Of a stretch of DNA of 64,000 bases, positions 10,706 to 59,126 are shown in pieces. A model generated the notes under the pieces. The model searched no databases and was not told where the DNA came from. It worked only from the letters and a program-made list of their open reading frames with translations. The stretch's first letter is position 1, and every line of letters starts with the position of its first letter. This DNA is from Candidatus Heimdallarchaeum aukensis (GTDB lineage: Archaea; Asgardarchaeota; Heimdallarchaeia; Heimdallarchaeales; Heimdallarchaeaceae), in assembly GCA_021513695.1 (NCBI GenBank), contig CP084166.1:864001-928000 (forward strand), in the 5' to 3' direction. A program made the position numbers and the translations under genes.

Positions 10706-10847
10706 AACTGAATTTTTAGTTCAAATTTTTTAAAGTTTAAGGAAGAAGAAAAAATGAGAAAAGAAAGAGTTGAAGATTATATTTAAGTTCTATTTATAAA
10801 TTAATAACCTAGATAAAACAGATAATATGTCAGCTTAAATCTAATAG

Positions 10848-13998: not shown

Positions 13999-14023
13999 TT
14001 TAACACCTTGTTTAATATACTTT

Positions 14024-25395: not shown

Positions 25396-25418
25396 TCCTA
25401 ATACTTCCTCTATGTTTT

Positions 25419-26267: not shown

Positions 26268-26414
26268 ATAATCACCATTAAATTTTCATAAATATATCTT
26301 TTATGTGATTCAAATTTGAAATACTATAAAGCAACTCCTACGAACTAATTTCTTAATTAATGCATATATTATTCTCTTTCTTACATACCTTTTTAGCTTA
26401 ACTTCTTAATTAAA

Positions 26415-26996: not shown

Positions 26997-27143
26997 CGTA
27001 AATCTTTACTATAATTTTTGGATTAGTTTATCTCATAATCATGTTTATTTTTTGTCACTGTTGTACTATTGAAATGAAATTAATTTTATTCTATTAAATC
27101 TATTGAATTACATTATACTTTGTAATATGTAGATGAAAAATTT

Positions 27144-37529: not shown

Positions 37530-38330
37530 CTAATTATATAAATCACCTTTTTTTCCTTTGGGGATTGCTAATAAATAACCTTGTATCGTATCTCTAATGT
37601 CTGTGAAATCTCTAAATGGATTAGGATTACCTATAATTATTTCCTTATTTTCGCTTTTAAGAATCTTTGCAATCTGATTAAAAATTACTAAAGTTACAAA
37701 CATAATTTCTCTGTTTGGTCCAGTATTATTATATCCTCTTGTAACAACAATAGGCAATCCATACATACTATGATATTTAAGACTAAATTGTTCAGTAGCT
37801 ACCTTACTAGCTTCATATGGAGACTGTGGTCTAAGCGAATTGTTTTCATTAATAGGTATTTCGCCTAGAGATGGTAATCCATATTCTACACTACTCTCTG
37901 CAATCTGAATATCAATATCTAAATCTGAATTTCTTATTATTTCTAAAAGATTTACAGTACTTTCAATATTTGTACGTACAGCTTCAATAGGCCCCCAAAA
38001 TGAGAAAAGAACAAGACTGTGCTGGTAAGTGAAAGATATAACTTGGTTGGACTTCTTTGATAGTTATTTCTAATGATGAATAATCAATAAGATTAGCTTC
38101 CTTAAGTATAGTTTTATTAAGAAATTTATCAATTTTTGGATTTATTGGATTAGATTGTCTTCTTACAATACTATAAATTTCAACTTCTTGTTCCACAGAT
38201 AGTATTTTTTCTACTAAAGAGCTACCTACAAATCCTAATGTGCCAGTAATCAGAACCTTTTCTTGATGAAAACATGATTTGTCATACAGATCTCTTTTTT
38301 CTTTAGAAAATTTATTTTTATATTCATTAA
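37530..38330 (-). pseudogene. Degraded paralog of the Gmd-like GDP-mannose 4,6-dehydratase at 48601-49704
   Basis: Fragments in different frames align to the intact gene. KVLITGTLGFVGSSLVEK matches RVLITGITGFVGSHLAEK. VRRQSNPINPKI...EANLIDYSSLE...PSYIFHLPAQS matches VVRRQSVPNFPNI...EANLIDYSSLE...PDYIFHLAAQS. YGLPIVVTRGYNNTGPNRE...IIIGNPNPFRDFTDIRDTIQGY matches YGLPIVITRGFNHTGPRRG...IIIGNPKPIRDFTFIEDMIQGY. Frameshifts and stops interrupt them. Confidence 0.75.
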
Positions 38331-38688
38331 TATTGTCTGGATATATTAAGAATTTGCTTGTTTCTCATATATTTCTCAGTAAATTTTATCTTCAAAGAGC
38401 ATAAATAAACTAACGCTTTCTTAGTTTTTAAATTTAATAGCAAGTATTTTAATTTAAACTCATTATTTTTTCAATTTTTTTTTAAAAAAATTTGAAGAAT
38501 AAAATGTAAGAATGAACAAACTTAAAATTAATAATTAAATTCTGCTTCATTAAAATGCATTATTTACTATTTAAATTGTAACTAAATACATAAATACATA
38601 TATACACATATTATTGAAAATAATAAGATAACTTTAACAAACAAATTTATTACAAAAAATAAGAAAAACTTCACATTGGGGGAAATTT

Positions 38689-39479: not shown

Positions 39480-40309
39480 CTCCACGTTGATGTTTTAAAT
39501 TTATAAATGATATTAAAAAACTCTTATGGTGCACTTCCAAGGTGTTACAAATACAGACATAGATTGTACTTGAAATAATAGAGAATAAGACGCTTATGAT
39601 GATGGAAGAGAAGACGGTCACGCAACGAGATGAATACAAGTTTGATGAAAACAAAAATGTTTTCTACGGCAGATTTACAGGACACACAGAAGTGTTTTTA
39701 TTTACACAACCAGTGATAAGACTGTTAAAGACGTATTGAACGGTCTTGGAGATAACCTGTCTCATGGGTGGATTCGTGAAAGAAACGATAAAAATGAGTT
39801 AGCAAAAAAATACAAACATATTGATCCAAGATTTCTTTTTGTAAAAAAAAGATATAATTTAAGACCAACTGAAATACAAGGAGCATTTGGAATTCAACAA
39901 CTCAAGAAACTTGAAATATTCTTACGAACTAGAGAAGAAAATGCAAAATTTTGGATAGATAATTTGAACAAATATAGAAGCCTTATTCACATTCCAAAGA
40001 CTGAAACAAATATAAGACATGCATGGTTTGGATTTCCAATAGTTATTTATGAAAAAGCTGGATTTAAACATGATGATTTCATTAAAATATCTTGAAAACA
40101 ATAATATTGAAACTCGTCCAATTATGGCAGGAGATATAATTGAACACCCCGCTATGCACTATTATAACTGGAAACAAGTAAGAACACTAGAAAACTCTTC
40201 AAAGATAATAAAAAATGTTTTCTTCGTTGGAAATCATAGTAGCATTAAACAAAAAGAAAGAGAATACATTATGGATGTAATGAAATCATTTTTGGAAAAA
40301 AACACCTAA
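39480..40309 (+). pseudogene. Degraded C-terminal half of a DegT-family enzyme, paralog of 49730-50998
   Basis: TSDKTVKDVLNGLGDNLSHGWIRERNDKNELAKKY...RYNLRPTEIQGAFGIQQLKKLEIF...NNIETRPIMAGDIIEHPAMHYYNWKQ aligns to the intact copy (HGWIRERKDRSILAKKY...GYNLRPTELQGAFGIHQIKKLDDF...NNIETRPIMSGNITEHPALKYFKWRK). It is split over two frames. The upstream part is a GC-elevated, stop-rich remnant. Confidence 0.7.
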
Positions 40310-40344
40310 CTTTTTTTTAAATATTCATTAAAATCTTTTCTTTT

Positions 40345-41349
40345 AAAGCATGTCCAAAAATTAATTTTTATTAATGTGGGGGTTTATGTCGGAAGTATGA
40401 GTTTCTTTCAGATCATAGACCCCCACAAAGCAAGAGAATTCATAATCATTAATGAACCTTTCCTTAAGAAACTGGTGAAAGAGGAACCGAGAGAAAGTAA
40501 GAGAGGGAGAAAAAGAATAGCAGAAAGGTGGGTGATACTGGCTTTAGCGATCATTGCGAGAATAGAAGGAATTGCTTGGAGGAAGTTAGAGGAAAAGTTG
40601 TCTTTATGCGATTTTTTGATAGAAGAGGGGTGGATGAAGAAGATTCCTTCCAAATCTACTTTTCATGCAGTGTGGAGAGCGACAGAAAGTAAGTTGCTGG
40701 AGCGGTGGATAATAGATTTAGGTAGGGAAATAGTAAGGAAAAAAGGGTTGAAAGCTATGTCGGTGGATAGTTCAGGTTTTAAAATTCGTCAAGCTTCTGT
40801 TTGGCGTTTTCTCAAGTGGGCAAGAGGAGGACTAAAGAAAACCTCCAAACTTTTCTGGAAGATACACCTTATAGTTGGTTTACCCTCTCGAGCTATAGTC
40901 TCTCTTGCTCATTCTGCTAGTAACACTCACGATAGTAAAGTCTTCGGTTTACTATGGCAGAAACTTCCTTCTGCACTCTTGAGACCTTTCTTGAGATTCT
41001 ATGGAGACTGCGCTTACTGGACAGAAAATATCGTGGGACTTCTTAGCCAACATTCCTTTTTTCCTGTTATTCCTCCAAAAAGTAATGCTCGTTATCCCTC
41101 TCCTCCTCCTCTTGGACCAATAGTTCAAGCTCATCGTCTCTACCCTGGTCTCTATCGTCATAATCACCACCCCGAGTATCGTAGTAGTATTGAACATGTC
41201 TTTGGTCTCCTCAAACTCTCTCTTCCCCCGATTCTTGATCGCTTACCCTCCACCATCCTCTCTACCTTGTACAGTTCTCTTCTCTGTTACAACTACCTTT
41301 TACTCCTTCGGACTGTATAGTTGGTGAAAAAGAATTTTTGGACATGCTT
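40345..41349 (+). mobile_element. IS4/IS5-superfamily insertion sequence, copy 1 (about 1005 bp, 18-bp perfect terminal inverted repeats AAAGCATGTCCAAAAATT)
   Basis: Identical to the copy at 47464-48469 over its whole length except for one A insertion in copy 2. The inverted repeats were read at both ends. Flanks suggest a 3-bp duplication (TTT here, AAT at copy 2), but AT-rich flanks make that weak. Confidence 0.85.
40376..41320 (+). CDS. DDE transposase of the IS4/IS5 superfamily
   Basis: C-terminal YRSSIEHVFGLLK fits the R-x3-E-x6-K (YREK) signature of IS4/IS5 transposases. The ORF fills the element. Confidence 0.8.
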   Translation: MGVYVGSMSFFQIIDPHKAREFIIINEPFLKKLVKEEPRESKRGRKRIAERWVILALAIIARIEGIAWRKLEEKLSLCDFLIEEGWMKKIPSKSTFHAVWRATESKLLERWIIDLGREIVRKKGLKAMSVDSSGFKIRQASVWRFLKWARGGLKKTSKLFWKIHLIVGLPSRAIVSLAHSASNTHDSKVFGLLWQKLPSALLRPFLRFYGDCAYWTENIVGLLSQHSFFPVIPPKSNARYPSPPPLGPIVQAHRLYPGLYRHNHHPEYRSSIEHVFGLLKLSLPPILDRLPSTILSTLYSSLLCYNYLLLLRTV

Positions 41350-41397
41350 TTTTAATAGAACATTAAATATTTATATCTATATATTATGTAACTATCA

Positions 41398-42543
41398 ATG
41401 AAAATAGCTATAATTAATCAATTTACCACACCAGAAGCTGGAGGGCACGAAATAAATTTAGCCAAACTATTACATAAAAAAGGACATGAACCTGTAATAA
41501 TAACTTCTGAATATAAGAATCCTAACCTAACCAATTATAAACTTATTAAGGCAGATGTGAAGAAGGATAAAGAACTCTGTTCTTTTAAAATTATAAGACT
41601 AAAAACTATATTTGCCTATTCAGAATTCCCAATTGTGACAGGAATGGATAAAATAATAGCTGAACTTAAACCAGACATTATTAATATTCATGAATTTTTT
41701 CAATACACTAGCTATAAAGGATACAAGTTAGCGAAAAAAAACAAAATACCTATTGTATTAACTCAACACTGTTATTACTTTCCACCCAGTTTTTTGAATA
41801 GATTAGGTATGAAAATTACAACTAAACTTTGGGGAAAAAAAATAATCAAGAATAGTGATGGACTTATAGCTATAGCTGAAAGCTCTAGTAAATTTCTAAA
41901 GGAAGTATCAAAAAATCCAAGATTGAAAGTAAACATAATACCAACGCCATTAGAATTGGATCAATTTCTTGAAATTATACCAGATTTTACTAAAAAATCA
42001 GAAAGTGATATTTTTAGAATATTATATGTTGGAAGAGTAGATGAGAGAAAAGGGATAAAATATTTGTTAGATGCTATGTCAATAGTAACAAAAAGATTCT
42101 ATAAACAAAAAATTGTTTTAGATATTGTTGGAAGAGGAGCAGATTTAAAGAAGTTTAAAAGATATGCAAGAGACAGAAATATTTGTGCAAAATTTCATGG
42201 ATTTGTTGAACATCAAAACATTTCAAAATTTTATAAAAAAGCTAATGTTTTTGTTTTACCCACAATTACAAAAGAACCATTCGGCAACGTAGCAGTTGAA
42301 GCTTTAGCGTCTGGGATCCCAGTTATTGCAAGCAAATTAGGAGGACTAGTAAATATTGTTCAAGAAGGTGCAGGATTTTTAGTTCAACCAAAAAATGCAG
42401 AAGAAATAGCTAATGCAATTACAAAGTTTTTAGATAATCCACTCTTATTAAAAAATTACAGTAAGAATGCAAAAGATCTTGGGTTCAGATTTGCAAATGA
42501 GCCTATAAATTCAATTATAGAGTTATTTCAGAATCTTATTTAA
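41398..42543 (+). CDS. GT4 glycosyltransferase
   Basis: EPFGNVAVEALASGIPVIASKLGG EX7E motif. N-terminal MKIAIINQFTTPEAGGHEINLAKLLHKKGHEPVII matches the GT4 N-domain. Confidence 0.85.
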   Translation: MKIAIINQFTTPEAGGHEINLAKLLHKKGHEPVIITSEYKNPNLTNYKLIKADVKKDKELCSFKIIRLKTIFAYSEFPIVTGMDKIIAELKPDIINIHEFFQYTSYKGYKLAKKNKIPIVLTQHCYYFPPSFLNRLGMKITTKLWGKKIIKNSDGLIAIAESSSKFLKEVSKNPRLKVNIIPTPLELDQFLEIIPDFTKKSESDIFRILYVGRVDERKGIKYLLDAMSIVTKRFYKQKIVLDIVGRGADLKKFKRYARDRNICAKFHGFVEHQNISKFYKKANVFVLPTITKEPFGNVAVEALASGIPVIASKLGGLVNIVQEGAGFLVQPKNAEEIANAITKFLDNPLLLKNYSKNAKDLGFRFANEPINSIIELFQNLI

Positions 42544-42585: not shown

Positions 42586-43030
42586 ATGGATATAAAAATG
42601 GACATTAATAAATTCAAAAATCAAAACATCTTGATAATTAGTGAAAATGGTTTTATTGGTTCTCACCTTTTTCTAAAGCTTAGACATTTATCTAAAAATA
42701 TTATTAGAACAGTTTATTCACATAATTCAGAGAAAAATCAATTGTACAAATTTTACTATATCCATGTATTATTTGTTCAGCTGATGATTTAGAAGATGAA
42801 TATGCAATTGATGGGATTTAATAGATGTGTTTCATCTATAGGTAAATATTTAGTTTTTCCATAAACCAGACCAGATGATGAAAATACAAATTTTGAATCC
42901 TCTTGATATTTTCTAATGTTTTCCATTATATTTAAAGTTCCAAAAGTATTGACTTGATAACAAAGCTCTGGCTTTTTTATTGATTCATAAACATCAATTA
43001 AACTTGCTAGGTAATATATGATATTGAAAT
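42586..43030. pseudogene. Disrupted NAD-dependent sugar epimerase/dehydratase: N-terminal fragment on + strand (42586-42792) and the following mid-gene segment inverted on - strand (~43030 to 42790)
   Basis: The + strand encodes NILIISENGFIGSHLFLKL (Rossmann GxxGxxG start). The - strand encodes YLASLIDVYESIKKPELCYQVNTFGTLNIMENIRKYQEDSKFVFSSSGLVYGKTKYLPIDETH, which is the segment that normally follows in the same orientation. The C-terminal part is absent. Confidence 0.55.
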
Positions 43031-43317: not shown

Positions 43318-44080
43318 GGTAGTGTCTAGTTTTTATACCACCTCCTAGGTAAAAAGGAACTAAGGGGAGGATGTCCCAAGCTCTGATGAGGACGAACGAA
43401 ATTATAATGGAGCATAAAGAGAGTAAGAAAACCAGAAAGATGAGTAGAGCCATAGACGGCACGGATAGGACAAGTGCAGTGGAGAATAGAATGAAACCAA
43501 CGATAACTCTTAAGAGTAGCATTAAAACGTTCAATATAGGAGCGTAAACCACCTTTGATAACGGAGATTTTGATACCTAGACGAAGTAAGACAGGATACC
43601 ATACCCCTGCATCTGTAACGACAATACGGGGCTTAAAACCCCAACATTTGAGCCAATAACGGAAAGTTAGTAAACATTCAAGATTACTCCGTCCTTTAGT
43701 AATACTAAAACCCAGTAAAGTCTTGTTGTAAGGATCTAACGCGAACCACAGATATATTGAGCCTTGAGAGGTCCTAATCTCTGTTTCATCTACTACTATA
43801 ATCTCTGGTATTCCCCCTCTCTCTGCTACAACTCTATGTAAACTTTCCCTAAAGAGCCTGAACTTCTTTACCCAATACCATAATGTTTGATGCGTTAAAC
43901 CATTCTTCCATGCTACTGTCCTCAACCCATTCTTTGAACCAATATATTCATAAATCGCTTTTATTATTATTTTTTTGGGGACTCTGCATCTCTTAAAAAG
44001 AGCAGATAGTTTTTGTGTTTTCATATCTTACTATTAGAGTCCCCACAAATATTTTTGTCGGAAGAAAACTAGACACTACC
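43318..44080 (-). mobile_element. IS6-family-like insertion sequence (about 763 bp, 16-bp perfect terminal inverted repeats GGTAGTGTCTAGTTTT, 9-bp direct target duplication CTTCACTAG)
   Basis: The inverted repeats start with GG as in the IS6 family. The CTTCACTAG duplication sits at 43309-43317 and 44081-44089. The single ORF spans almost the whole element. Confidence 0.75.
43326..44024 (-). CDS. DDE transposase, IS6-family-like
   Basis: 232 aa. VVDETEI, VVTDAGVWY and IERFNATLKSYRW blocks resemble the D, D and E/K regions of IS6/IS26-type transposases. There is an N-terminal HTH-like region. Confidence 0.7.
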   Translation of the reverse strand: MKTQKLSALFKRCRVPKKIIIKAIYEYIGSKNGLRTVAWKNGLTHQTLWYWVKKFRLFRESLHRVVAERGGIPEIIVVDETEIRTSQGSIYLWFALDPYNKTLLGFSITKGRSNLECLLTFRYWLKCWGFKPRIVVTDAGVWYPVLLRLGIKISVIKGGLRSYIERFNATLKSYRWFHSILHCTCPIRAVYGSTHLSGFLTLFMLHYNFVRPHQSLGHPPLSSFLPRRWYKN

Positions 44081-44437: not shown

Positions 44438-45394
44438 GTGAGTTTTATATTGCGTGAGATGATAACAATGAATTCAGATTTATCACTAAAAGACAAGAAA
44501 ATTTTATTAACAGGTGGTAGTGGTTTTTTTGGAAGTTTTATTCTTGATGAATTAAATAAAGAGGAAGTTTCTGAAATTATTGTACCAAGGTCATCAAGGC
44601 ATGATTTACGTAATAGAGATGATGTACAAGATGTAATGGACGGAGTTGACATCGTAATACATGCTGCAGGAATTGTATCTGGTATTGGGGGAATTCAAGA
44701 AATACCTGCAAAAATTTTTTATGATAACGCAATAATGGGCTTGCATATAATGGAAGAAGCAAAAAATTTTGGAATTAAGAAATTAGTAAATATAGGTACT
44801 GCTTGTTCATATCCCAAATTTGCACCTATACCCTTAAAAGAGAAAGATTTATGGGCTGGATATCCTGAAGAAACCAAAGCTTCTTATGGTATCGCTAAAC
44901 GTTTACTAGTAGAAGGTGCAAGAGTTTATCATCATCAATATAATTTAAATGTTATCCCACTAATAATATTTAATCTATATGGACCTCGTGACAATTTTGA
45001 TTTAGCTACCTCTCATGTAATACCTGCTTTAATTCGAAAATGCTTAGAATCAAACAAGTTAGTGGTTTGGGGAGATGGAACTCCAACAAGAAGTTTTTTG
45101 TATGTCAAAGACGCAGCAAAAGCTGTGATATTGGCAACAAAAAAATATAATAAACATTACCCTGTAAATATAGGTACATCTGAAGAAACTAGTATTAAAA
45201 ATCTTGTAGAATTAATAGCTGAATTAACTGGTTTTAATGGTGAAATAATCTATGATAAAACAAAACCTAATGGACAACCTAGGCGATGTGCAGATGTTTC
45301 GTTAGCAAAAAAAGAATTTAATTTTGAAGCTAAATATTCATTAAAACAAGGATTAAAGGAAACAATTGATTGGTATAAAAAAAATTTTAACTGA
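44438..45394 (+). CDS. GDP-4-keto-6-deoxy-D-mannose 3,5-epimerase/4-reductase family (GDP-L-fucose synthase Fcl/WcaG or GDP-colitose synthase ColC-like)
   Basis: KKILLTGGSGFFGS Rossmann start. NIGTACSYPKFAPIPLKEKDLWAGYPEETKASYGIAKRLLVEG...LYGPRDNFDLATSHVIPALIRK aligns closely with the Fcl blocks (SSCIYPK...EPTNEPYAIAK...LYGPHDNF...SHVIPALLRR) from memory. Confidence 0.75.
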   Translation: MSFILREMITMNSDLSLKDKKILLTGGSGFFGSFILDELNKEEVSEIIVPRSSRHDLRNRDDVQDVMDGVDIVIHAAGIVSGIGGIQEIPAKIFYDNAIMGLHIMEEAKNFGIKKLVNIGTACSYPKFAPIPLKEKDLWAGYPEETKASYGIAKRLLVEGARVYHHQYNLNVIPLIIFNLYGPRDNFDLATSHVIPALIRKCLESNKLVVWGDGTPTRSFLYVKDAAKAVILATKKYNKHYPVNIGTSEETSIKNLVELIAELTGFNGEIIYDKTKPNGQPRRCADVSLAKKEFNFEAKYSLKQGLKETIDWYKKNFN

Positions 45395-45830: not shown

Positions 45831-46202
45831 TTTTTAAATTATTGTATTTTAATCTTCATTGATGAATATAAAAATTAATTTGGTTATATATAAAAATCTA
45901 TATCAATTTTAATATGGCTTTTAGAAAATAAAATTTATTTTAGTTTTAAAACAATGAAGAGGATTATTTAAAAGAAAATTGTTAAAAGAAAAAATTAATA
46001 TTCATAAGTTCACATAAAATAGCCACAAACTATTAAGATAATGGAATAAATAGGAAACAGATATTCATATGACTATAAAAGTATATGATTTTTGTCTTTT
46101 AGAATAGAAAATACAAATTTTTTTTGTAGATGTAATTCTAAATATCCCTTTACTTTTAATAAAAACCTAATCTTTATAATAAGATTAGTAATTATTCTTC
46201 AT

Positions 46203-47333
46203 ATGGATAAAGTTATAATAATTGGTCCCTCTTCAAAATTCTTAAGTGGTATCACATATTATACAATTAATATAGCAAATTTGTTAAGAAAAGATAAAAA
46301 AATTTTTATTTTTGAAATAGATCAATTATTACCAAAATTTTTATTTCCTGGGTCAGGAAGAGTGGGTAAAATACAAACAATCTCTACTTATAAAGAAGAA
46401 GTCTCAGTTAGCCATATTAAAATGAAATATTATTCAATACCTTCAATAATTAAAGCAGCAAAGTCTATAAACATGTTAAAACCAAAGGTAGTAATCTTTC
46501 AATGGTGGTCTTGTACAGTAGCACACATTTATTATTTTTTAATAAAACTTATTTCAAAAGAGATTAAAATCATTTTTGAGTTTCATGAAATTTTAGATAC
46601 AAGCGAAGCTTCATTTTTTCTTCTAAAAATTTATACGAGTTTGATGATGAAATTGTTGTTAAAGGAAGTTACAATATTTATAACTCATTCAGTTTCCGAT
46701 AAGAAAAAAGTAATAAAAACTTATAAAATAGATGAAAGCAAAATTCAAGTTATACCTCATCTTACAACAACTACCTATTCTTTAATAAGTAAAAATATTG
46801 CTAGAAAAAAATTTAATTTACCAATGAACTCAATCGTCTTGGTATTTTTTGGATTAATTAGAAAATATAAAGGAATCAACATTTTAGTTAAAGCTTTTGA
46901 ACAATTAAAAATAAACAGCTTAAAAAAGCCATTACTTATTATTGCTGGAGAGATATGGGATCCATTAGACAAGAAAACTAACAAGATAATAAATGAAAAT
47001 AGAAATATTATTCTTATTAACAAATACTTATCAGATGAGGAGGTAGAATATTTAATCTCTGCTGCAGATTGTTTTGTATTACCATATACTAGAGCATCTC
47101 AGAGTGGAGTATTAAGTATAATACATAATACAGGCAAACCTGTAATATTATCTGACATAAAAGAATTCGTGGAAGCTTCAAAACATTATAGTAATTCTAT
47201 TTTCTTTAAGAGAAATGATATTATAGATTTAAAATCAAAAATAGAAAAATTCACTAAAAATCATAATGATTTTAATATTAAGCCAGTTAACAACAATGAA
47301 AGAGTTAAAGAATTATATCTTTCTGTAATGTAA
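46203..47333 (+). CDS. GT-B (GT4-like) glycosyltransferase
   Basis: Likely start MDKVIIIGPSSKFLSGITYY; the ORF track begins 37 codons earlier. The C-terminal nucleotide-sugar-binding-like region ISAADCFVLPYTRASQSGVLSIIHNTGKPVILSDI is a degenerate EX7E. Confidence 0.55.
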   Translation: MDKVIIIGPSSKFLSGITYYTINIANLLRKDKKIFIFEIDQLLPKFLFPGSGRVGKIQTISTYKEEVSVSHIKMKYYSIPSIIKAAKSINMLKPKVVIFQWWSCTVAHIYYFLIKLISKEIKIIFEFHEILDTSEASFFLLKIYTSLMMKLLLKEVTIFITHSVSDKKKVIKTYKIDESKIQVIPHLTTTTYSLISKNIARKKFNLPMNSIVLVFFGLIRKYKGINILVKAFEQLKINSLKKPLLIIAGEIWDPLDKKTNKIINENRNIILINKYLSDEEVEYLISAADCFVLPYTRASQSGVLSIIHNTGKPVILSDIKEFVEASKHYSNSIFFKRNDIIDLKSKIEKFTKNHNDFNIKPVNNNERVKELYLSVM

Positions 47334-47463
47334 TTATATATTTCTAAAAGAGGAGATAAAATCATTGTTACGCTTACAGACAAGCTATTATGAATCGAAA
47401 TTCTCAAATGAAAGTAATATTATATGTTTTTGTCTATCTTCAATTAAATATTAAATAATTAAT

Positions 47464-48469
47464 AAAGCATGTCCAAAAATTAATTTTTATTAATGTGGGG
47501 GTTTATGTCGGAAGTATGAGTTTCTTTCAGATCATAGACCCCCACAAAGCAAGAGAATTCATAATCATTAATGAACCTTTCCTTAAGAAACTGGTGAAAG
47601 AGGAACCGAGAGAAAGTAAGAGAGGGAGAAAAAGAATAGCAGAAAGGTGGGTGATACTGGCTTTAGCGATCATTGCGAGAATAGAAGGAATTGCTTGGAG
47701 GAAGTTAGAGGAAAAGTTGTCTTTATGCGATTTTTTGATAGAAGAGGGGTGGATGAAGAAGATTCCTTCCAAATCTACTTTTCATGCAGTGTGGAGAGCG
47801 ACAGAAAGTAAGTTGCTGGAGCGGTGGATAATAGATTTAGGTAGGGAAAATAGTAAGGAAAAAAGGGTTGAAAGCTATGTCGGTGGATAGTTCAGGTTTT
47901 AAAATTCGTCAAGCTTCTGTTTGGCGTTTTCTCAAGTGGGCAAGAGGAGGACTAAAGAAAACCTCCAAACTTTTCTGGAAGATACACCTTATAGTTGGTT
48001 TACCCTCTCGAGCTATAGTCTCTCTTGCTCATTCTGCTAGTAACACTCACGATAGTAAAGTCTTCGGTTTACTATGGCAGAAACTTCCTTCTGCACTCTT
48101 GAGACCTTTCTTGAGATTCTATGGAGACTGCGCTTACTGGACAGAAAATATCGTGGGACTTCTTAGCCAACATTCCTTTTTTCCTGTTATTCCTCCAAAA
48201 AGTAATGCTCGTTATCCCTCTCCTCCTCCTCTTGGACCAATAGTTCAAGCTCATCGTCTCTACCCTGGTCTCTATCGTCATAATCACCACCCCGAGTATC
48301 GTAGTAGTATTGAACATGTCTTTGGTCTCCTCAAACTCTCTCTTCCCCCGATTCTTGATCGCTTACCCTCCACCATCCTCTCTACCTTGTACAGTTCTCT
48401 TCTCTGTTACAACTACCTTTTACTCCTTCGGACTGTATAGTTGGTGAAAAAGAATTTTTGGACATGCTT
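47464..48469 (+). mobile_element. IS4/IS5-superfamily insertion sequence, copy 2 (identical to copy 1 apart from a single extra A)
   Basis: Same inverted repeats and internal sequence as 40345-41349. gggaaaatag here versus gggaaatag in copy 1 (~47836). Confidence 0.85.
47495..48440 (+). pseudogene. IS4/IS5 transposase gene, frameshifted (split into 47495-47890 and 47868-48440)
   Basis: A 1-nt insertion in an A-run breaks the reading frame relative to copy 1. This could be a genuine inactivating mutation or a homopolymer sequencing error. Confidence 0.75.
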
Positions 48470-48600
48470 TAATAATTAAATACTAAATAATAATTTAATA
48501 ATTAAATATTAAATAATAAAAAAATTTATTTTGGAATACATATTCTATTTTAATTTCTAAAAGAAAAAAATATAAAAATATTTGAATCTTTACATTAAGT

Positions 48601-49704
48601 ATGTTATCAGAAAAAGAAATTTTCCGTGAAATAAATGCTAAACATAAAAAAATTCTTATAGATCCTGAAAATTTAGATTCTTATTTGTCAAATTTTGATA
48701 AAGAAAAAAAAGATTTATTTGATCCAAAAAAACTAGAAGGTTCTAGGGTTTTAATTACCGGTATTACCGGATTTGTAGGAAGTCATTTAGCAGAGAAACT
48801 TGTAGGATTAGACTCTGATATTGATGTTTATGGTGTTGTGCGAAGACAATCTGTACCTAACTTCCCAAATATTAAACATATTGTTAATGACATAAATCTA
48901 ATAGAAGCAAATTTGATAGATTATTCTTCTTTAGAACATACTATTAATAATGTAGAACCAGACTATATTTTCCATCTAGCAGCTCAATCTTTTGTACCAA
49001 CTTCTTTTATTGCACCAATTGAGTCTGTAACAATAAACATTCAAGGAACAGTAAATTTACTTGAAATTCTTCGTAAAAGTGAAATTAATTTCAGTGGAAT
49101 TCAAGTTGCCTGCAGTAGTGAGCAATATGGACTTGTCTATCCTGATGAAGTTCCAATAAATGAGAACAATCCATTTAGACCACAATCACCTTATGCTGTT
49201 AGTAAAATAGCAACTGAAAAATATAGTTTAACTTATCATAGAGCTTATGGTTTACCAATTGTAATTACAAGAGGTTTTAATCATACAGGTCCAAGAAGAG
49301 GAATAAAGTTTGTTACTTCAGTAATCGCAAGTCAAATCGCAAATATTATTAATGGCAAAGGAAATAAGATAATAATCGGAAACCCCAAACCAATAAGAGA
49401 TTTTACATTTATTGAAGATATGATACAAGGATATATTTTATCAATAATAAAAGGAAAAAGAGGTGAGGTTTACAATCTTGGTCATGGATTTGGAATTAGT
49501 ATAGAGAATTTGATTAAACTTACTGCATCTATTTACGATGTTAGCTATGAAATTGAAATTGATAAATCAAGATATCGACCAGCAGAGGTAAACATTCTTG
49601 TATGTGATTATTCAAAAGCTAAAAAAGAACTAGGTTATTATCCACAATATTCGTTAGTTGAGACTATCAGAAAAATTGTTGAATTTTACTTAGAAAAAAC
49701 GTAA
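48601..49704 (+). CDS. gmd: GDP-mannose 4,6-dehydratase-like (Gmd family) NDP-sugar dehydratase
   Basis: RVLITGITGFVGSHLAEKL, VVRRQS, DYIFHLAAQSFV, PYAVSKIATEKY (YxxxK) and especially GFNHTGPRRGIKFVT resemble Gmd blocks (IVRRSS, YNLGAQSHV, FNHESPRRG) recalled from memory. It has a 45-aa N-terminal extension. Confidence 0.7.
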   Translation: MLSEKEIFREINAKHKKILIDPENLDSYLSNFDKEKKDLFDPKKLEGSRVLITGITGFVGSHLAEKLVGLDSDIDVYGVVRRQSVPNFPNIKHIVNDINLIEANLIDYSSLEHTINNVEPDYIFHLAAQSFVPTSFIAPIESVTINIQGTVNLLEILRKSEINFSGIQVACSSEQYGLVYPDEVPINENNPFRPQSPYAVSKIATEKYSLTYHRAYGLPIVITRGFNHTGPRRGIKFVTSVIASQIANIINGKGNKIIIGNPKPIRDFTFIEDMIQGYILSIIKGKRGEVYNLGHGFGISIENLIKLTASIYDVSYEIEIDKSRYRPAEVNILVCDYSKAKKELGYYPQYSLVETIRKIVEFYLEKT

Positions 49705-49729
49705 TCTTAAATTATAGGGTGATTTTATA

Positions 49730-50998
49730 ATGAAGTTAGAAACAGCATTGAATGAAATTAAGAATATTGTAGATATGTATTTCTCTGAAAATGATATTTA
49801 TAAAGATGAAACGAAGATAAGGCTTATTGCTCCTTCATATGGAACTAAAGAAGTGATAGAAGTAATAGAATCACTTCTTTCCACTAATGTAACAATGGGT
49901 AAAAAAGTTAGTGAATTTGAAAATATGTTTTCAACATACTTAAATGTGAAATATGGTACTATGGTAAATTCTGGTTCAAGTGCAAATTTAATAGCTCTTC
50001 AAATTTTATCAAATCCTGCTATTAGAAATAATATTAAACCTAAAGACGAAATTATTACTCCAGCTTTAACTTGGTCTACTACTGTTTTTCCAATGTTTGA
50101 TATTCATGCAGTTCCTGTATTTGTTGATGTGGATCCTAAAACTTTGACTATTGATGTTAACCAACTAAAAAGCGCTTTATCTAAGAAAACTAAGGCAATA
50201 ATGCCAGTTCATCTTTTAGGTCATCCATGTGATATGGACTACATAACAGAATTTGCTGAAGATAATTCATTGTACATAATTGAAGATTGTTGTGAAGCTC
50301 ATGGAGCAATGTGGAAAGGTAAGAAAGTTGGTAGTTTTGGTGATATCGGTACTTTTAGTTTCTTTTTTTCTCATCATATATCTACGATAGAGGGTGGGAT
50401 TGTTGTTACTAATAACGAAGAATATAATCTTTTATCAAAATCTTTGAGGGCCCATGGTTGGATTCGAGAGAGAAAAGATAGGTCGATTTTAGCTAAAAAA
50501 TATCCTTTTATCAGTGAAAAATATCTTTTTATAAATAAAGGATATAATTTAAGACCTACAGAACTTCAAGGCGCATTTGGAATACATCAAATTAAGAAAT
50601 TAGATGATTTCATTAAAATTAGAGAAGAAAATGCAAAATATTGGTTATCTGAACTTGATGAAATAAAGCATCTTATACAGTTACCAACCATTAAGAAAGA
50701 TGTTAAGCATTCATGGTTTGGTTTTCCCTTAATAGTTAAAGATGAAGCTCCATTTAAAAAAGATGACTTAATTCAATATCTTGAATTAAATAACATTGAA
50801 ACTCGTCCAATTATGTCAGGTAACATTACAGAACATCCAGCTTTAAAATATTTCAAATGGCGTAAGATCGGTAATTTGGAAGTATCCTCGAAAGTTATGA
50901 AGAATGGCTTTTTCTTTGGTAATCATCTAGGTATTAAAAACTACGAAAGAGAATTTATTGCGGAGAAAATTAGAGAGTTCATAGATTATAAAACTTAG
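49730..50998 (+). CDS. DegT/DnrJ/EryC1-family PLP enzyme with His replacing the Schiff-base Lys: ColD-like NDP-4-keto-6-deoxyhexose 3-dehydratase rather than a classical aminotransferase
   Basis: The block GSFGDIGTFSFFFSHHISTIEGGIVVTN aligns to the family consensus ...SFhgnKiittgEGG... with H at the K position, read by eye. The remaining blocks (HGWIRER, NIETRPIM) are standard DegT. Confidence 0.65.
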   Translation: MKLETALNEIKNIVDMYFSENDIYKDETKIRLIAPSYGTKEVIEVIESLLSTNVTMGKKVSEFENMFSTYLNVKYGTMVNSGSSANLIALQILSNPAIRNNIKPKDEIITPALTWSTTVFPMFDIHAVPVFVDVDPKTLTIDVNQLKSALSKKTKAIMPVHLLGHPCDMDYITEFAEDNSLYIIEDCCEAHGAMWKGKKVGSFGDIGTFSFFFSHHISTIEGGIVVTNNEEYNLLSKSLRAHGWIRERKDRSILAKKYPFISEKYLFINKGYNLRPTELQGAFGIHQIKKLDDFIKIREENAKYWLSELDEIKHLIQLPTIKKDVKHSWFGFPLIVKDEAPFKKDDLIQYLELNNIETRPIMSGNITEHPALKYFKWRKIGNLEVSSKVMKNGFFFGNHLGIKNYEREFIAEKIREFIDYKT

Positions 50999-51081: not shown

Positions 51082-51903
51082 TTATCTTTCTATAATTATT
51101 ATGTATCTTTTTCTTGTTCCTGCTTTGATTTCTATATAACCACACTCTTTTTTTTCACAAAACAACCTACGTAATTTCTCCAATTGGTTTTTGTTCATTA
51201 ATTGTAAAGTAATCAAATTAATTCTAACGTCATTATTATTCATTGCTTCATTCAGCAATTTAATAGCAAAATCTAACTCTCTCTCTCCAGCAATAAGTTC
51301 AGATTGTACTCCTTTCCACCCCCTTTGTTTTTCAAGTTTCGTCAAATCTGCAGGATAGATGGGTGGGTAACACATTAAAGCTGTGTATTTTCCTTCAGGT
51401 ACAATTTCTTTTATTATTTGCCCTTCTGATTTAATCAAAGTTATTAAGCTGCTTAATTTATTTTTCACTATATTTCTTTGTGCTAGTTGATAAGATATTT
51501 CATTTATTTCTGTAGCTAAAACTTTTCTCTTGTATTTTTTAGCGAGTAGCATTGCTATTGCTGCACTGGCTCCTGTCCCAATCTCGATTATAGGGTAGGA
51601 AAAGTTTGCAATTTTACTTGTGAGCAGTTCATTTATTGCTTCGACGTAAGCCATTCTTAGACTATAAGAAGGAATTAAGTGCCCTTTTGGTAGTTCAATA
51701 TCTAAATCTGCTAATTCTTTAAACAAGCACTTATTAAGTTCTGATAGAGTTTCAGGATCACCCAAATCAAATTTAGGAGGATTTTTGCTTATTAAGTATT
51801 TCTCCAATTTAGGGTATTTAGCAACTAATTTTTCGAATTTCATCCCTAAATGCTTAGCTTCTATAATTTTTAGTGGTTCTTTAATCATGCTTAGTCCTAT
51901 CAT
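51082..51903 (-). CDS. Class I SAM-dependent methyltransferase, RlmF/METTL16-like (N6-adenine RNA MTase type)
   Basis: SAM motif IIEIGTGASAAIAMLLAKK and an NPPF-like MCYPPIYPAD motif. Confidence 0.5.
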   Translation of the reverse strand: MIGLSMIKEPLKIIEAKHLGMKFEKLVAKYPKLEKYLISKNPPKFDLGDPETLSELNKCLFKELADLDIELPKGHLIPSYSLRMAYVEAINELLTSKIANFSYPIIEIGTGASAAIAMLLAKKYKRKVLATEINEISYQLAQRNIVKNKLSSLITLIKSEGQIIKEIVPEGKYTALMCYPPIYPADLTKLEKQRGWKGVQSELIAGERELDFAIKLLNEAMNNNDVRINLITLQLMNKNQLEKLRRLFCEKKECGYIEIKAGTRKRYIIIIER

Positions 51904-52102: not shown

Positions 52103-53059
52103 TTAAATTTTTGCTTTTGATCTAAAAGGTAATTTAGCAGAAATAGCTTTCCAATCCATGATAAAGTATTCTATTACCAAATCAATAACTAGTACAATAA
52201 TAGAAACTATACCAACCAAAGGAATAGTACTGAAAAATCCTAGAGCAAAATAAGTTGCCAGGTAGAGTAAATGAAAACTTGTAAATAAAGCAAAAGGAAG
52301 AATATTAGTTATTTTTTCGATTCTAAAATGTCCCGCAAAAATAGAGATTAGTATAACTGTTAAAGCAATAAAAACAAACAACAGAACAAGATAAAACCAA
52401 TACCAAACAACAATTATTCCTTTAGCAAGAAGAAATAGATTAAAGCGATAAGTTCCTTCAAAAGCTAAATAAAGAGGAATGTAACCCAAAAAAGGAACAA
52501 TTAAGTGATAAACAATTACAAGTAAATTTACTTTGTCTCTCCAAATTTTACGCTCTAAACGTAGTATAGAACTGAAAATTAAAACAATAAAAAACCAACC
52601 CATGTAATTAGTCCAAATAACACCAAAGTAAGTAAGAGGAGAAATATAAGTAGGCAAACCATATCCCCAATCCCAAAATCCACCATCAATTCTAATAGCA
52701 ATAGCATCCATAGTTAGATCAAGTGTTAAAGCTAACAAAGTGTCTAAAAAAGGGCGAGATATAGGATGCAAACCAAAATGGTCAGTAGTATCCATTGAAC
52801 AGGTAATAATCATTGCCCAACAAAAAGCAACAACTAATGGGACATTGTTGGGAGCACGACCAAACTGTAATAGAAAAAGAGTTGAATAGTGATAACTGTC
52901 ATATAAGAAGATACTCAGATACTCAATACTCAAACCAAATAAAGTAGCGGAAAGGAAATTCAACAAACGAGACCATCGCTTAAGAAAAATAAATCTGACT
53001 AGAAATACAAGATAAAGGACTTCAAAATAAATCTCAAAAAAATAAGTAAGCCAAACCAT
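52103..53059 (-). CDS. Polytopic membrane protein, unknown function
   Basis: 318 aa, 8-9 hydrophobic segments, W/Y/F-rich, no assignable motif. Confidence 0.4.
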   Translation of the reverse strand: MVWLTYFFEIYFEVLYLVFLVRFIFLKRWSRLLNFLSATLFGLSIEYLSIFLYDSYHYSTLFLLQFGRAPNNVPLVVAFCWAMIITCSMDTTDHFGLHPISRPFLDTLLALTLDLTMDAIAIRIDGGFWDWGYGLPTYISPLTYFGVIWTNYMGWFFIVLIFSSILRLERKIWRDKVNLLVIVYHLIVPFLGYIPLYLAFEGTYRFNLFLLAKGIIVVWYWFYLVLLFVFIALTVILISIFAGHFRIEKITNILPFALFTSFHLLYLATYFALGFFSTIPLVGIVSIIVLVIDLVIEYFIMDWKAISAKLPFRSKAKI

Positions 53060-53285: not shown

Positions 53286-53930
53286 TTAAATTTTCTTTGA
53301 TATTGCGTAAGCAGTATATCCTCCAAATGCACTATTAACTAACAACCAAGGTAAACCAAAGTAAGCTATGCCTAGAAACGAACCAGATCCTGTTTGGGGG
53401 TTGACATAAAAAAATGTAAGAGCTACGAGTGTTAGTATAAAATTAGTTAGTCCCATAATTATTCCAGTCAATATTGTACGATTACGCAGATTTAGGTTTG
53501 AGGGAAGAAACTTAAATGAAAGATCTGCTGAAAAACCTGTTGCCAGTCCAAAAACGCACCAACCTACCACTGCCCAAGGACTTACTAAAGACTTTGTTTT
53601 TATCAACTCGTAATAATATTCTACAAAGAAACCAATTATTGCATAAGGCAAATATATTGCTGTTCCCATTCCAAACTGTCTTATTTTAAGAATAGGTAAG
53701 ATAATTATTAGTGCATTAAAATAACCTACCATATATACAAAAAACATTCCTGTTCCTTCTATCTCGCCCATTTTACCGAATCCTACTGTTGCACTTCCTG
53801 CAAAAAAGTCAAAGAAGTATGTTCCTATAGCTGTTACTGTGGATTGTAGGAATCCAAAAATGAGTATAATTTGCCATACTTTTATTTTTTCTTTTTTTTC
53901 TGGTTGTGTAATTCTATCTTTTTTTCTCAT
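53286..53930 (-). CDS. Small 6-TM membrane protein, ECF-transporter S-component-like (tentative)
   Basis: 214 aa. The size and glycine-rich TM pattern resemble substrate-capture components. No ATPase or T component is nearby. Confidence 0.3.
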   Translation of the reverse strand: MRKKDRITQPEKKEKIKVWQIILIFGFLQSTVTAIGTYFFDFFAGSATVGFGKMGEIEGTGMFFVYMVGYFNALIIILPILKIRQFGMGTAIYLPYAIIGFFVEYYYELIKTKSLVSPWAVVGWCVFGLATGFSADLSFKFLPSNLNLRNRTILTGIIMGLTNFILTLVALTFFYVNPQTGSGSFLGIAYFGLPWLLVNSAFGGYTAYAISKKI

Positions 53931-57665: not shown

Positions 57666-59126
57666 ATGGAGGGCGTCGTTAAAACCTTGAAAGTGAGAAT
57701 AAAGAATGAGGTGTTGACGACTAGAAAAAAGCTAAGGTTAAGGAGAATAACGGGGAGAGACACAAGGATTATAGAAAAGTATGTGAGAATAATACACCAT
57801 AACAGAAGAAAGATATGTATACGAACCAAAAAAGGGAAAATAAGAGTACATAGAGGAAAATTAGATGAGTTGACGCTTACTACTTCAAAAGTTAAAGAAG
57901 AAGAGATGAGAACGACTGTTCCTCACGACCTTAAGAAAATGTTTCCTTACTGTTCTCACAATGAGTTTCAAGAGTGTAGAGATATAGCTGTGCAACTGTA
58001 CGAGCAAGGATATCGACCCAGTTCTAAACGTCCTCTCATAAAGAGAGTAAGAAGGCAACTAATTAATGGAAAAAGATTCATCCTTGTTCATCTACCAAAA
58101 GAAAAGAATAACACTCTTACTCGTTGGTGGGTGGGAATAAGAGACTCGTTAGACACGTGGAAAAGAAATACCCCCTACCATCAGAAGTTGTGGTTACCTT
58201 TAGAGATAAGCACTTTTCATCAGAAAGAGTTGAAAAAAGGACAAGTGAAAAGCCTAGAATTAAGATATAAGCATTCTACACGTGAGTGGTGGGTGTATTT
58301 TCAACTAAAAGTTCTCCCTCCTTCTTCTTTTCTAAGCGATAATTCCTCTTCTTCTTCTCTTCCTCCAGCTGTGCTGGGAATAGATCTGGGGATAAACATT
58401 CCAGGTGCAGGAGTGCTTCTAGCCCCTAAAAAGAAGTTAACTATTAAAGAGATAAAATTCTGGTATACCAAACAGTGGAATAAATTTAATCATAGATATA
58501 AACTTAAACTTTCCCGTCTTCAGAGGAAAGCGGCTTTAAATGACCAGTCGGGTAAAAAACACCAAATTTATCGTTTTCTTGGATATCTTCGAAGAAGATA
58601 TAGAAACGTTAAACGAGCCTATATTCACCAATTTGTAAGCGATATTGTGCGGACAATAGAGAGTTATGCGCAAGTGTATGATCTTTTTGTCGTCGTAGGT
58701 TACCCCAAAAATGTTAGAAAAGGAAAAGGAAAAGAAAAAGGGAAAAGTAAAAGTACTCGTTATTTTCGCAGAAAACTTCATCAGTGGAACTATGCTCATG
58801 TTCTTGGTCTTCTCCGTCGAGCATTGATATTAAGAGGTTTTGCTCCTCACCGCATTCTTATAATAGACGAAAGAGGAACATCTTCTCATTGTTCACGTTG
58901 TGGAAAAGAAGTTTCTCGTCCCGTCAGAGGGTTAGTCTCTTGTCCCTCTTGTAACTATACCTTCCACTCTGATTTAACAGGAGCTAGAAATATTGCTCTT
59001 AAGTTCCTTAGTCATCTTTTTCGTCCCCGTGTTACAACTATTACTGATTACTTTACTGGTCAAAAATTCAGTCTTACCCATTACACTGTTTGCCGAGGGC
59101 TCAGCCATTGGTTGCAGTCCCAGTAG
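57666..59126 (+). CDS. tnpB: TnpB (OrfB_IS605) RuvC-like RNA-guided endonuclease
   Basis: RuvC-I GIDLGINIPGAG, RuvC-II IIDERGTS, the zinc finger CSRCGKEV...CPSCNY and RuvC-III HSDLTGARNIAL near the C-terminus. The N-terminal half matches the OrfB_IS605 wedge/REC-like region. Confidence 0.85.
   Translation: MEGVVKTLKVRIKNEVLTTRKKLRLRRITGRDTRIIEKYVRIIHHNRRKICIRTKKGKIRVHRGKLDELTLTTSKVKEEEMRTTVPHDLKKMFPYCSHNEFQECRDIAVQLYEQGYRPSSKRPLIKRVRRQLINGKRFILVHLPKEKNNTLTRWWVGIRDSLDTWKRNTPYHQKLWLPLEISTFHQKELKKGQVKSLELRYKHSTREWWVYFQLKVLPPSSFLSDNSSSSSLPPAVLGIDLGINIPGAGVLLAPKKKLTIKEIKFWYTKQWNKFNHRYKLKLSRLQRKAALNDQSGKKHQIYRFLGYLRRRYRNVKRAYIHQFVSDIVRTIESYAQVYDLFVVVGYPKNVRKGKGKEKGKSKSTRYFRRKLHQWNYAHVLGLLRRALILRGFAPHRILIIDERGTSSHCSRCGKEVSRPVRGLVSCPSCNYTFHSDLTGARNIALKFLSHLFRPRVTTITDYFTGQKFSLTHYTVCRGLSHWLQSQ

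Follow-up and report, generated by a model that had tools for sequence, protein, structure and literature searches.

A predicted GDP-3,6-dideoxyhexose gene set and the remnants of a sister-type module in Candidatus Heimdallarchaeum aukensis

Introduction

Among the DegT-fold enzymes of deoxy-sugar synthesis, E1 and SpnQ have a four-cysteine [2Fe-2S] motif and need a reductase, whereas ColD is cluster-free, hydrolyses its enamine and regenerates pyridoxamine 5'-phosphate (PMP) from glutamate (PMC8987622). For the GDP-mannose 4,6-dehydratases (GMD, here Gmd), which are short-chain dehydrogenase/reductase (SDR) proteins, six typical features are described: GXXGXXG, GXXRR, an RR loop, S/T with YXXXK, a Glu base, and an Arg that orients substrate and cofactor (PMC3584063). 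A [ST]SE...YxxxK signature marks GMDs, and DE or DK at that place marks dTDP or CDP dehydratases (PMC8987622). Here we analyse a 64,000-nt stretch of Candidatus Heimdallarchaeum aukensis (contig CP084166.1, 864,001 to 928,000), called the window below, in which a DegT-fold gene with His at the Schiff-base position follows a divergent Gmd-like gene and accompanies a gene resembling Fcl and ColC, and we compare this gene set with the described enzymes and with related loci.

Colitose is the 3,6-dideoxyhexose most relevant to this comparison. Surveying 303 archaeal and 12,636 bacterial genomes by homology, one study predicted GDP-L-colitose pathways in 719 genomes and remarked on their absence from TACK archaea, a remark that implies that some other archaea were predicted to have them; its supplement holds no per-phylum archaeal table for colitose (PMC7725333). 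A 2024 review of archaeal N-glycans lists no 3,6-dideoxyhexose (PMC11407970), and an Asgard glycoproteome reports several glycan units of unknown composition and no dideoxyhexose (PMC11284389). The statement in a first-pass annotation of the window that this sugar is not established for archaeal glycans agrees with the review, and should be read beside the pathways already predicted for some archaea. The H. aukensis genome is one of two circularised Heimdallarchaeum genomes (Wu et al. 2022) and is transposase-rich; genome-wide, it shares about 90% average amino acid identity with H. endolithica (PMC8813620).

Results

A DegT-fold enzyme with His at the Schiff-base position

The proposed gene set has three intact members:

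49730-50998, plus strand, DegT-fold enzyme of 422 aa (DegT422); Pfam DegT PF01041, 3.9e-90 over residues 40-414
48601-49704, plus strand, SDR of 367 aa (SDR367); Pfam GDP_Man_Dehyd, 2.1e-81
44468-45394, plus strand, predicted Fcl/ColC-like SDR epimerase/4-reductase of ~307 aa; its open reading frame (ORF) opens at 44438

The NCBI protein of H. aukensis that is 100% identical to DegT422 is named only 'DegT/DnrJ/EryC1/StrS family aminotransferase'. Nucleotides 50357-50398 translate as SFFFSHHISTIEGG, and the codon of H215 is CAT at 50372-50374. In HMMER alignments against the PDB, S214-H215-H216 of DegT422 align with S187-H188-H189 of ColD (2gms, 273 bits, E 3.4e-80), and it is exactly at the S214-H215 columns that DegT422 departs from the engineered ColD chains H188N, H188K and S187N/H188K. 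The same residues align with A219-H220-H221 of E1 (3bcx, 253 bits, E 5e-74). ColD and E1 are the best PDB matches; the Lys-type sugar aminotransferases begin at 169 bits, with perosamine synthase. Across an alignment of 65 homologues (52-73% identity), the histidines H215 and H216 never vary and S214 is conserved in at least 90%, while Lys-type DegT proteins of the same metagenomic loci carry N-K or A-K at the S214-H215 columns (N-K in L007 and L008). The His column is therefore not a chance substitution.

An AlphaFold2 model of DegT422, built from the family alignment, has a predicted local distance difference test score (pLDDT) of 93 and a predicted template-modelling score (pTM) of 0.92; its sole poorly defined part is the catalytic loop, residues 214-218. 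Foldseek places E1 first (TMq 0.91), ColD next (TMt 0.91-0.93, 36-37% identity) and then perosamine synthase; over the ColD structures the TM score ranges from 0.84 to 0.93. E1 comes out on top because DegT422 has the extra terminal helices of E1. Of 8000 scored DegT homologue candidates, 7941 are at E <=1e-20, and the sequences place DegT422 in a separate and very large clade, which numbers thousands of metagenomic proteins, none of them characterised. DegT422 is very probably a 3-dehydratase.

The E1 type and the ColD type of 3-dehydratase were distinguished by the [2Fe-2S]-binding motif C-X57-C-X1-C-X7-C. Counted along the E1 alignment, the cluster ligands of E1 are C193 (EDCC), C251, C253 and C261 (RDCYCAPGCDNTC). 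In the alignment with 3bcx, DegT422 has no equivalents of C251, C253 and C261 and keeps only that of C193, and the region of the E1 cysteines reads RAHGWIRERKD, to be compared with RAHGWTRNL in ColD. Only C167 and C188 are invariant cysteines among the 65 homologues. We scanned all window ORFs of at least 150 aa against Pfam, the scan on which all statements about the gene content of the window rest, and no E3-like reductase is among them. In a neighbour-joining tree, the clade with DegT422 has E. coli ColD as its sister, the Lys-type enzymes form the outgroup, and E1 groups with an Omnitrophota homologue bearing a Cys-rich insert. Because it lacks three of the four cysteines that bind the E1 cluster, we assign DegT422 to the ColD type and not the E1 type; from its residues we predict a ColD-type dehydratase that has no cluster and whose overall length is E1-like.

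The first-pass annotation had aligned the His with the Schiff-base Lys by eye and had called the signature ColD-type, allowing that a proper alignment might put a Lys there or that a tree might place the protein inside classical aminotransferases such as perosamine synthase. Its alignment by eye was correct (His aligned to both ColD H188 and E1 H220), the subtype agrees with the missing Fe-S motif, and the tree sets DegT422 within the His-type 3-dehydratases, outside the classical aminotransferases. The structure model that it had proposed as a check of the cofactor pocket gives a confident fold with E1 and ColD as the top matches, and leaves the catalytic loop ill-defined.

The Omnitrophota homologue deserves a remark of its own. 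Located at 10001-11272 of locus L006, from a metagenome-assembled genome, it is a His-type DegT protein of 39% identity whose E1-like Cys-rich insert (RDCFCGDDSGPRGAC) goes with its position beside E1 in the tree, and which is probably a 3-dehydrase of the Fe-S type from outside Proteobacteria.

A probable divergent Gmd that carries an N-terminal extension

The features typical of GMDs were followed in SDR367 and counted over 120 members (P0121-P0240) of its family, here the SDR-370 family. GXXGXXG (the Wierenga motif) is present as GITGFVG. GXXRR is present as YGVVRRQS; RR occurs in 119-120 of the 120 family members, and the GDP-6-deoxy-4-keto-D-mannose reductase Rmd (2pk3) has R-N. In the RR loop, which in BceN spans Arg37-Arg46 and contacts the neighbouring monomer and the cofactor, SDR367 has the two opening arginines (YGVVRR). 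At E. coli Gmd positions 133-135, 157 and 161 SDR367 has S-S-E and YAVSK, with the Glu in all 120 members; this SSE signature is of the GMD type and not DE or DK. The orienting Arg (R190 of BceN, R192 of E. coli Gmd, the second Arg of NHESPRRG) is found in the NHTGPRRG of SDR367 and in 118 of 120 members, and is replaced by Gln in Rmd 2pk3, in the 313-residue SDR of locus L017 (L017_SDR313) and in L001_SDR314 of H. endolithica. SSE and YxxxK are necessary and not sufficient for a Gmd, as Rmd carries both; taken alone, as a Gmd/Rmd discriminator, they were discarded as uninformative.

Gene pairing adds to the motifs. In two loci, L016 and L020 (a Helarchaeota contig), SDR367 orthologues (71% and 74% identity) directly adjoin a genuine Fcl, 51-54% identical to E. 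coli Fcl; that of L016 scores 487 bits with the NCBIfam Fcl model, and that of L020 is classed by BLAST only. Neither a DegT gene nor a canonical Gmd lies within 10 kb on each side in L016, or within 4.7 kb upstream and 10 kb downstream in L020. From the GMD motifs, including GXXRR and Arg192, and from this gmd-fcl-like pairing of orthologues, we conclude that SDR367 is a divergent Gmd, a putative GDP-mannose 4,6-dehydratase. The family has a conserved N-terminal extension before the Rossmann motif, ~47 aa in SDR367 (48601-48741) and 45-61 aa across its members, which is not in canonical Gmd or Rmd.

The Fcl/ColC-like gene

For the third gene, M11 (44468) is the probable start, because orthologues align from there. 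In E. coli Fcl, S107, Y136 and K140 form the SDR triad, and C109 and H179 the epimerisation pair. The H. aukensis protein has T, C, Y, K and H at positions 107, 109, 136, 140 and 179 and so keeps the residues for epimerisation (Cys/His) and for reduction (Ser/Thr-Tyr-Lys); its best PDB matches are GDP-L-fucose synthases. With the NCBIfam Fcl model NF047922 (cutoff 500) it scores 244.6 bits and the other DegT-linked Fcl-like proteins 246-275, compared with 304 for E. coli ColC (taken from the O55:H7 genome), which is also sub-threshold, and 551 for E. coli Fcl.

A small neighbour-joining tree puts E. coli ColC with the Fcls and sets the DegT-linked Fcl-like proteins apart as a clade of their own. 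A call between ColC and Fcl from pairwise identity (34.6% vs 32.0%) and this tree was indecisive, the archaeal proteins being a third branch. The equal distance to both means that the stereochemistry at C4 and C5 is not fixed by orthology, and 'ColC-like' describes the predicted function by analogy, not orthology. Orthologues of 64-72% identity occur in the DegT loci L002, L004 and L005. The orthologue in L004 (11355-12278) has C109S and H179R in E. coli Fcl numbering, with both members of the epimerisation pair replaced; as its residues suggest, it may act as a reductase only, giving a D-configured product.

Module types in related loci

SDR367 and DegT422 are 25 bp apart and co-directional, and SDR and DegT genes are adjacent in 5/5 related loci. 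In type A modules (L013, L014), a His-type DegT gene and an Fcl-like gene accompany a canonical Gmd, which scores 505 and 513 bits at a cutoff of 415; together they make up the classical gene set for colitose. Type B includes the window and L002, L004 and L005, with an SDR-370 family member, a His-type DegT and an Fcl-like gene. Type C, of H. endolithica (L001), combines SDR364, a His-type DegT, a GT4 family glycosyltransferase and SDR314, a GalE/LegB-like SDR without the Glu base. Types A and B differ only in the Gmd used, which supports both SDR367 as the dehydratase and the GDP linkage. No canonical Gmd lies within 10 kb in L001, L002, L004 and L005, and the Fcl-like gene co-occurs with the DegT gene in L002, L004, L005, L013 and L014. 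The third gene of L001 was considered as an Fcl orthologue and ruled out, being 27% identical, GalE/LegB-like and without the Glu base. In L017, an SDR-370 family member is paired with a short Rmd-like SDR, which has R-N and Gln at the discriminating positions, as in Rmd 2pk3.

Proposed pathway

On balance we favour the reading in which the three intact genes form a colitose-like route to a GDP-3,6-dideoxy-L-hexose. SDR367 would, from its motifs and context, convert GDP-mannose to GDP-4-keto-6-deoxy-D-mannose. In the second step, for which the argument is strongest, DegT422 would hold PMP non-covalently, because His215 replaces the Schiff-base Lys, and form a ketimine with the 4-keto sugar; His215 would take the C4' proton, and the C3 hydroxyl would be expelled. 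As there is no [2Fe-2S] cluster and no E3-type reductase in the window, the enamine would presumably be hydrolysed as in ColD, giving GDP-4-keto-3,6-dideoxy-D-mannose and ammonia, with PMP regenerated from L-glutamate. The Fcl/ColC-like SDR would then epimerise C5 and reduce C4 with NAD(P)H, and neighbouring GT4 or GT2 enzymes would attach the dideoxy sugar to a surface glycan. For the GDP linkage, both SDRs match GDP-sugar enzymes first in the PDB (all of the top 8 for SDR367), and homologous DegT genes in L013 and L014 accompany a canonical Gmd and an Fcl-like gene. What the route probably yields is a GDP-3,6-dideoxy-L-hexose, in the simplest case GDP-L-colitose.

The first-pass annotation had proposed the GDP-colitose route from a Gmd-like gene, the DegT gene and an Fcl/ColC-like gene at 44438-45394. 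Both downstream ORFs exist as it listed them, and the three-gene set is supported. Its Gmd-like gene has the GMD motifs and the orthologues of that gene the expected partner, although its best PDB match is Rmd; the third ORF exists and its relatives have conserved DegT partners, with the likely start moved to 44468 and no orthology to ColC. Colitose as the exact product is a matter of prediction.

Alternative explanations

Several findings weigh against the colitose-like route. The best PDB match of SDR367 is the reductase Rmd (2pk3, 202 bits), true Gmds reaching at most 159, and it scores 178 bits against the 415 cutoff of the NCBIfam gmd equivalog TIGR01472; other NCBIfam equivalogs are likewise far under threshold (LegB 203, RmlB 161). 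JGI calls the family 'GDP-4-dehydro-6-deoxy-D-mannose reductase', whereas NCBI calls it a dehydratase. The Fcl-like protein is on its own branch, 34% identical to E. coli Fcl and to ColC alike, and its gene is separated from the SDR-DegT pair, 3.2 kb away, by a glycosyltransferase gene and an insertion sequence (IS) copy, so that co-expression is not assured. DegT422 is closer to E1 than to ColD in length and terminal helices, and the Pfam scan found no GDP-mannose pyrophosphorylase in the window. The match to Rmd, the JGI name and the presence of SSE and YxxxK in Rmd would fit an Rmd-type C4 reductase, with a canonical Gmd elsewhere in the genome feeding the ColD-type enzyme, a GDP-3,6-dideoxy-D-hexose made without epimerisation, and the Fcl-like enzyme on a separate fucose branch. 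We find this quite improbable: GXXRR and the dehydratase-critical Arg, retained by SDR367 and by at least 98% of the family, are missing from Rmd, the L016 and L020 orthologues pair with a genuine Fcl and no other dehydratase, the L017 family member has as its partner a short Rmd-like SDR that itself lacks both motifs, and the four loci named above have no canonical Gmd within 10 kb. Nor do the three genes have to be one pathway. SDR367 and the Fcl-like enzyme could make GDP-L-fucose or another 6-deoxyhexose, with the His-type DegT acting on another substrate, such as a GDP-heptose, or on a side branch; in L016 and L020 the SDR-370 family member indeed has only Fcl as its partner, the Fcl-like gene of the window lies beyond an IS, the H. 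endolithica SDR-DegT pair has a different terminal SDR, and the GDP-heptose 4,6-dehydratase 7us5 (154 bits) is among the top PDB matches of SDR367. The close and recurrent SDR-DegT adjacency speaks against such a split, as do the DegT-linked Fcl-like proteins (~245-275 bits), a clade apart from the genuine Fcl of related Asgard contigs (487 bits in L016), which argues for specialisation with the dehydratase. We hold separate pathways to be rather unlikely.

Two further alternatives concern DegT422 itself, and both seem to us very improbable. As an E1/RfbH-type CDP-4-keto-6-deoxyglucose 3-dehydrase it would belong to a CDP-linked pathway of the abequose, paratose or tyvelose type. RfbH is its best NCBIfam match (366 bits), E1 is the top Foldseek match, and many homologues are named 'CDP-6-deoxy-D-xylo-4-hexulose-3-dehydrase' by JGI; the RfbH score, however, is under the 423 cutoff, the region of the missing cluster cysteines reads RAHGWIR much as in ColD, E3 reductases, CDP-glucose dehydratases of the [ST]DK type and cytidylyltransferases are all absent from the Pfam scan of the window, the two partner SDRs are of the GDP type, and the tree puts DegT422 with ColD. 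The E1-type assignment, to which the NCBIfam match and the JGI names point, was thus ruled out by the missing Cys motif. A His-type DegT acting mainly as a C4 aminotransferase, as SpnQ can be without its reductase, would give a GDP-4-amino-4,6-dideoxy sugar. The fold and most residues of the pyridoxal 5'-phosphate pocket are common with perosamine synthase, but ColD and E1 have no transaminase activity under the conditions in which that of SpnQ was noted (PMC8987622). DegT422 retains S-H, and both residues are conserved family-wide. The PDB title of 3gr9 is 'ColD H188K S187N', and Cook et al. in 2009 reportedly found that both S187N and H188K are required to make ColD a transaminase. Set beside these alternatives, the colitose-like route to a GDP-3,6-dideoxy-L-hexose remains the reading that we prefer.

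Remnants of a sister-type module

Upstream of the intact genes are the remains of a second module, and IS elements and glycosyltransferase genes lie in the same locus:

37533-38355, minus strand, SDR364-type pseudogene (H. endolithica type), residues 17-292 by tblastn
39730-40297 (approximate), plus strand, H. endolithica-type DegT pseudogene, residues ~229-418 by tblastn
40344-41369, plus strand, IS copy A, with an intact DDE transposase at 40376-41320 (Pfam DDE_Tnp_1), directly after the DegT pseudogene
41398-42543, plus strand, intact GT4 glycosyltransferase (Pfam Glycos_transf_1, 6.7e-40)
42598-42750, plus strand, and 43031-42810, minus strand, scrambled SDR314 fragments (H. endolithica type), aa 1-51 and aa 68-141
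43326-44024, minus strand, second IS type with an rve integrase-core transposase (Pfam rve_3, rve), between the SDR314 remnant and the Fcl-like gene
46092-47333, plus strand, intact GT4-type glycosyltransferase (Pfam), between the Fcl-like gene and IS copy B
47463-48489, plus strand, IS copy B, with a frameshifted DDE transposase, its ORF split into 47495-47890 and 47868-48440

The SDR pseudogene has a frameshift near 38014-38021, lacks its C-terminus and has SSV for SSE and PNRE for PRRG; it is 72-74% identical to the SDR364 of L001, vs 53-60% to the intact SDR367. The DegT pseudogene has a frameshift near 40082 and has lost the N-terminal 228 aa, including the catalytic loop; it is 71-76% identical to the L001 DegT, vs 53% to the intact DegT422. 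The two SDR314 fragments are 67% and 81% identical to the SDR314 of L001. The intact window genes are only 63-64% identical to the H. endolithica genes and have their closest relatives elsewhere (65-78%). Because the remnants are closer to the H. endolithica genes than to the intact ones, H. aukensis has a dead type C and a live type B module, and these identities mean that one module replaced another, and not that the current genes were duplicated. Degraded Gmd-like and DegT-like paralogs had been reported in the first pass and are real, with the SDR remnant on the minus strand from 38355 to 37533 and the DegT remnant at about 39730-40297, not 39480-40309; the suggestion made there, that the module was once duplicated, fails, the remnants being of a sister-species type and not copies of the intact module.

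IS copies A and B are ~1026 bp long, 99.3% identical and in direct orientation, with a 1-bp indel in B. They flank a 6.1 kb segment holding a GT4 gene, the SDR314 fragments, the rve IS, the Fcl-like gene and the second GT4 gene, which looks like a composite transposon. Both GT4 genes have counterparts in L001. The one at 41398-42543 is 83% identical to GT4-381, its orthologue embedded in the H. endolithica module, and is a candidate dideoxy-sugar transferase. The one at 46092-47333 is 77% identical to GT4-376, which sits just upstream of SDR364.

Two side observations concern the history of the wider region. An Eco57I-like methylase gene (22127-24004) and a Methyltransf_10 gene (51082-51903) are adjacent in L001 (15159-17824); in the window they are 27 kb apart, in opposite relative orientation, and flank the region of rhamnose (Rml), glycosyltransferase and dideoxy-sugar genes, which from this split looks like a variable segment that was inserted or inverted. 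A TnpB/Cas12f-like gene (486 aa) at 57666-59126 has a fragment of 81-88% identity in L001 (13880-14353), directly after the H. endolithica sugar module.

The surrounding glycan island

The window is AT-rich (about 22-35% GC), and the Pfam scan outlines a glycan-biosynthesis island of ~50 kb, from ~2 to 51 kb. It includes many GT4 and GT2 genes, three flippase-like genes and these further sets:

24328-28007, minus strand, complete dTDP-L-rhamnose set: RmlA 27144-28007, RmlC 26415-26996, RmlD 25419-26267, RmlB 24328-25395
10848-11852, 17157-18155 and 28774-29658, sulfotransferase-family genes
12865-15418, minus strand, UDP-GlcNAc 2-epimerase and UDP-glucose/GDP-mannose dehydrogenase-family gene, overlapping by 17 bp, WecB/WecC-like

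With RmlABCD present, the island encodes at least two deoxy-sugar routes. The WecB/WecC-like pair probably supplies N-acetylmannosaminuronic acid (ManNAcA), and the three sulfotransferases suggest sulfated surface glycans. An arylsulfotransferase or sulfotransferase is also present in the related loci L002, L004 and L020. Four ORFs in or beside the island, encoding 214-688 aa (31258-33324, 6965-8923, 52103-53059 and 53286-53930), have no significant Pfam match, the only one of 6965-8923 being a sub-threshold DUF1616 (E 0.005, 16.5 bits). A 695-aa gene of L001 (498-2585) likewise has no Pfam match. A tRNA scan of the window found none.

Discussion

The gene set consists of known enzyme families in a new lineage, together with a divergent Gmd subfamily and an allelic history; it is no new kind of system, and it leaves the known biochemistry of these families unchanged. 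A first consequence concerns annotation. PGAP names the authentic ColD of E. coli O55:H7 CB9615 (L011 5701-6867) 'DegT/DnrJ/EryC1/StrS family aminotransferase' and its ColC 'GDP-L-fucose synthase family protein', and no ColD or ColC model is among the NCBIfam matches. Names of this generality, together with the lack of such models, leave the colitose pathway systematically under-annotated, and 'DegT family aminotransferase' conceals 3-dehydratases. For a widespread archaeal SDR subfamily, our assignment of SDR367 would resolve the conflict between the NCBI name (dehydratase) and the JGI name (reductase).

That a dead sister-type module lies next to a live one suggests that surface-sugar genes turn over rapidly, with the help of IS elements, between two species at 88% average nucleotide identity, and is consistent with selection on surface glycans. 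A larger picture can be drawn, which we offer tentatively and regard as possible rather than probable when all its parts are taken jointly. In it, Heimdallarchaeum, from the clade that its describers placed closest to eukaryotes, would make and display a 3,6-dideoxy-L-hexose (colitose or an isomer); versions of the module in sister species, with an Fcl-like or a GalE-like last enzyme, would be swapped and inactivated by IS elements, much like the serotype switching of bacterial O-antigens; and the route would start with a Gmd subfamily that is extended at its N-terminus, had so far escaped recognition and is widespread among the Asgard, DPANN and Altiarchaeota archaea. If true, archaeal glycans would thereby gain their first sugar of the 3,6-dideoxyhexose class. 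The surface glycobiology of Asgard archaea has hardly been explored, and the gene-level prediction supplies a mass target: a residue of 130.063 Da, or a GDP-dideoxyhexose at m/z 572.08.

Comparison with known systems

The nearest characterised enzyme to DegT422 is ColD (WbdK) of E. coli O55 and Yersinia pseudotuberculosis (2gms, 3b8x, 2r0t, 3gr9). The two have in common the DegT/aspartate-aminotransferase fold, Ser-His at the Asn-Lys position, RAHGW(T/I)R where E1 has its Cys cluster, the lack of an Fe-S motif, and GDP-type gene neighbours. They differ in that DegT422 is only 40% identical and has 422 rather than 388 aa, with additional helices at the N- and C-termini for which E1 gives the better superposition. 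E1 (AscC/RfbH/DdhC; 3bcx) resembles DegT422 in the His at the Lys position, a similar length and the terminal helices, but it ligates [2Fe-2S], needs E3 and uses a CDP-sugar, whereas DegT422 keeps the C193 equivalent only and has no E3 gene nearby. SDR367 shares with the Gmds of E. coli, P. aeruginosa and B. cenocepacia (BceN) the GMD motifs, [ST]SE...YxxxK and, in its orthologues, the gmd-fcl-like gene pairing; it is 31% identical to E. coli Gmd and closer in sequence to Rmd. With the Rmd of A. thermoaerophilus (2pk3) it has in common the GFVG Rossmann variant, SSE and RDFTDV-like motifs, whereas Rmd has R-N for RR, Gln for the dehydratase-critical Arg and no N-terminal extension. The Fcl-like protein, finally, is like the ColC and Fcl of E. 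coli in its SDR fold and catalytic residues and like ColC in its length and sub-threshold Fcl-model score, and it is an orthologue of neither.

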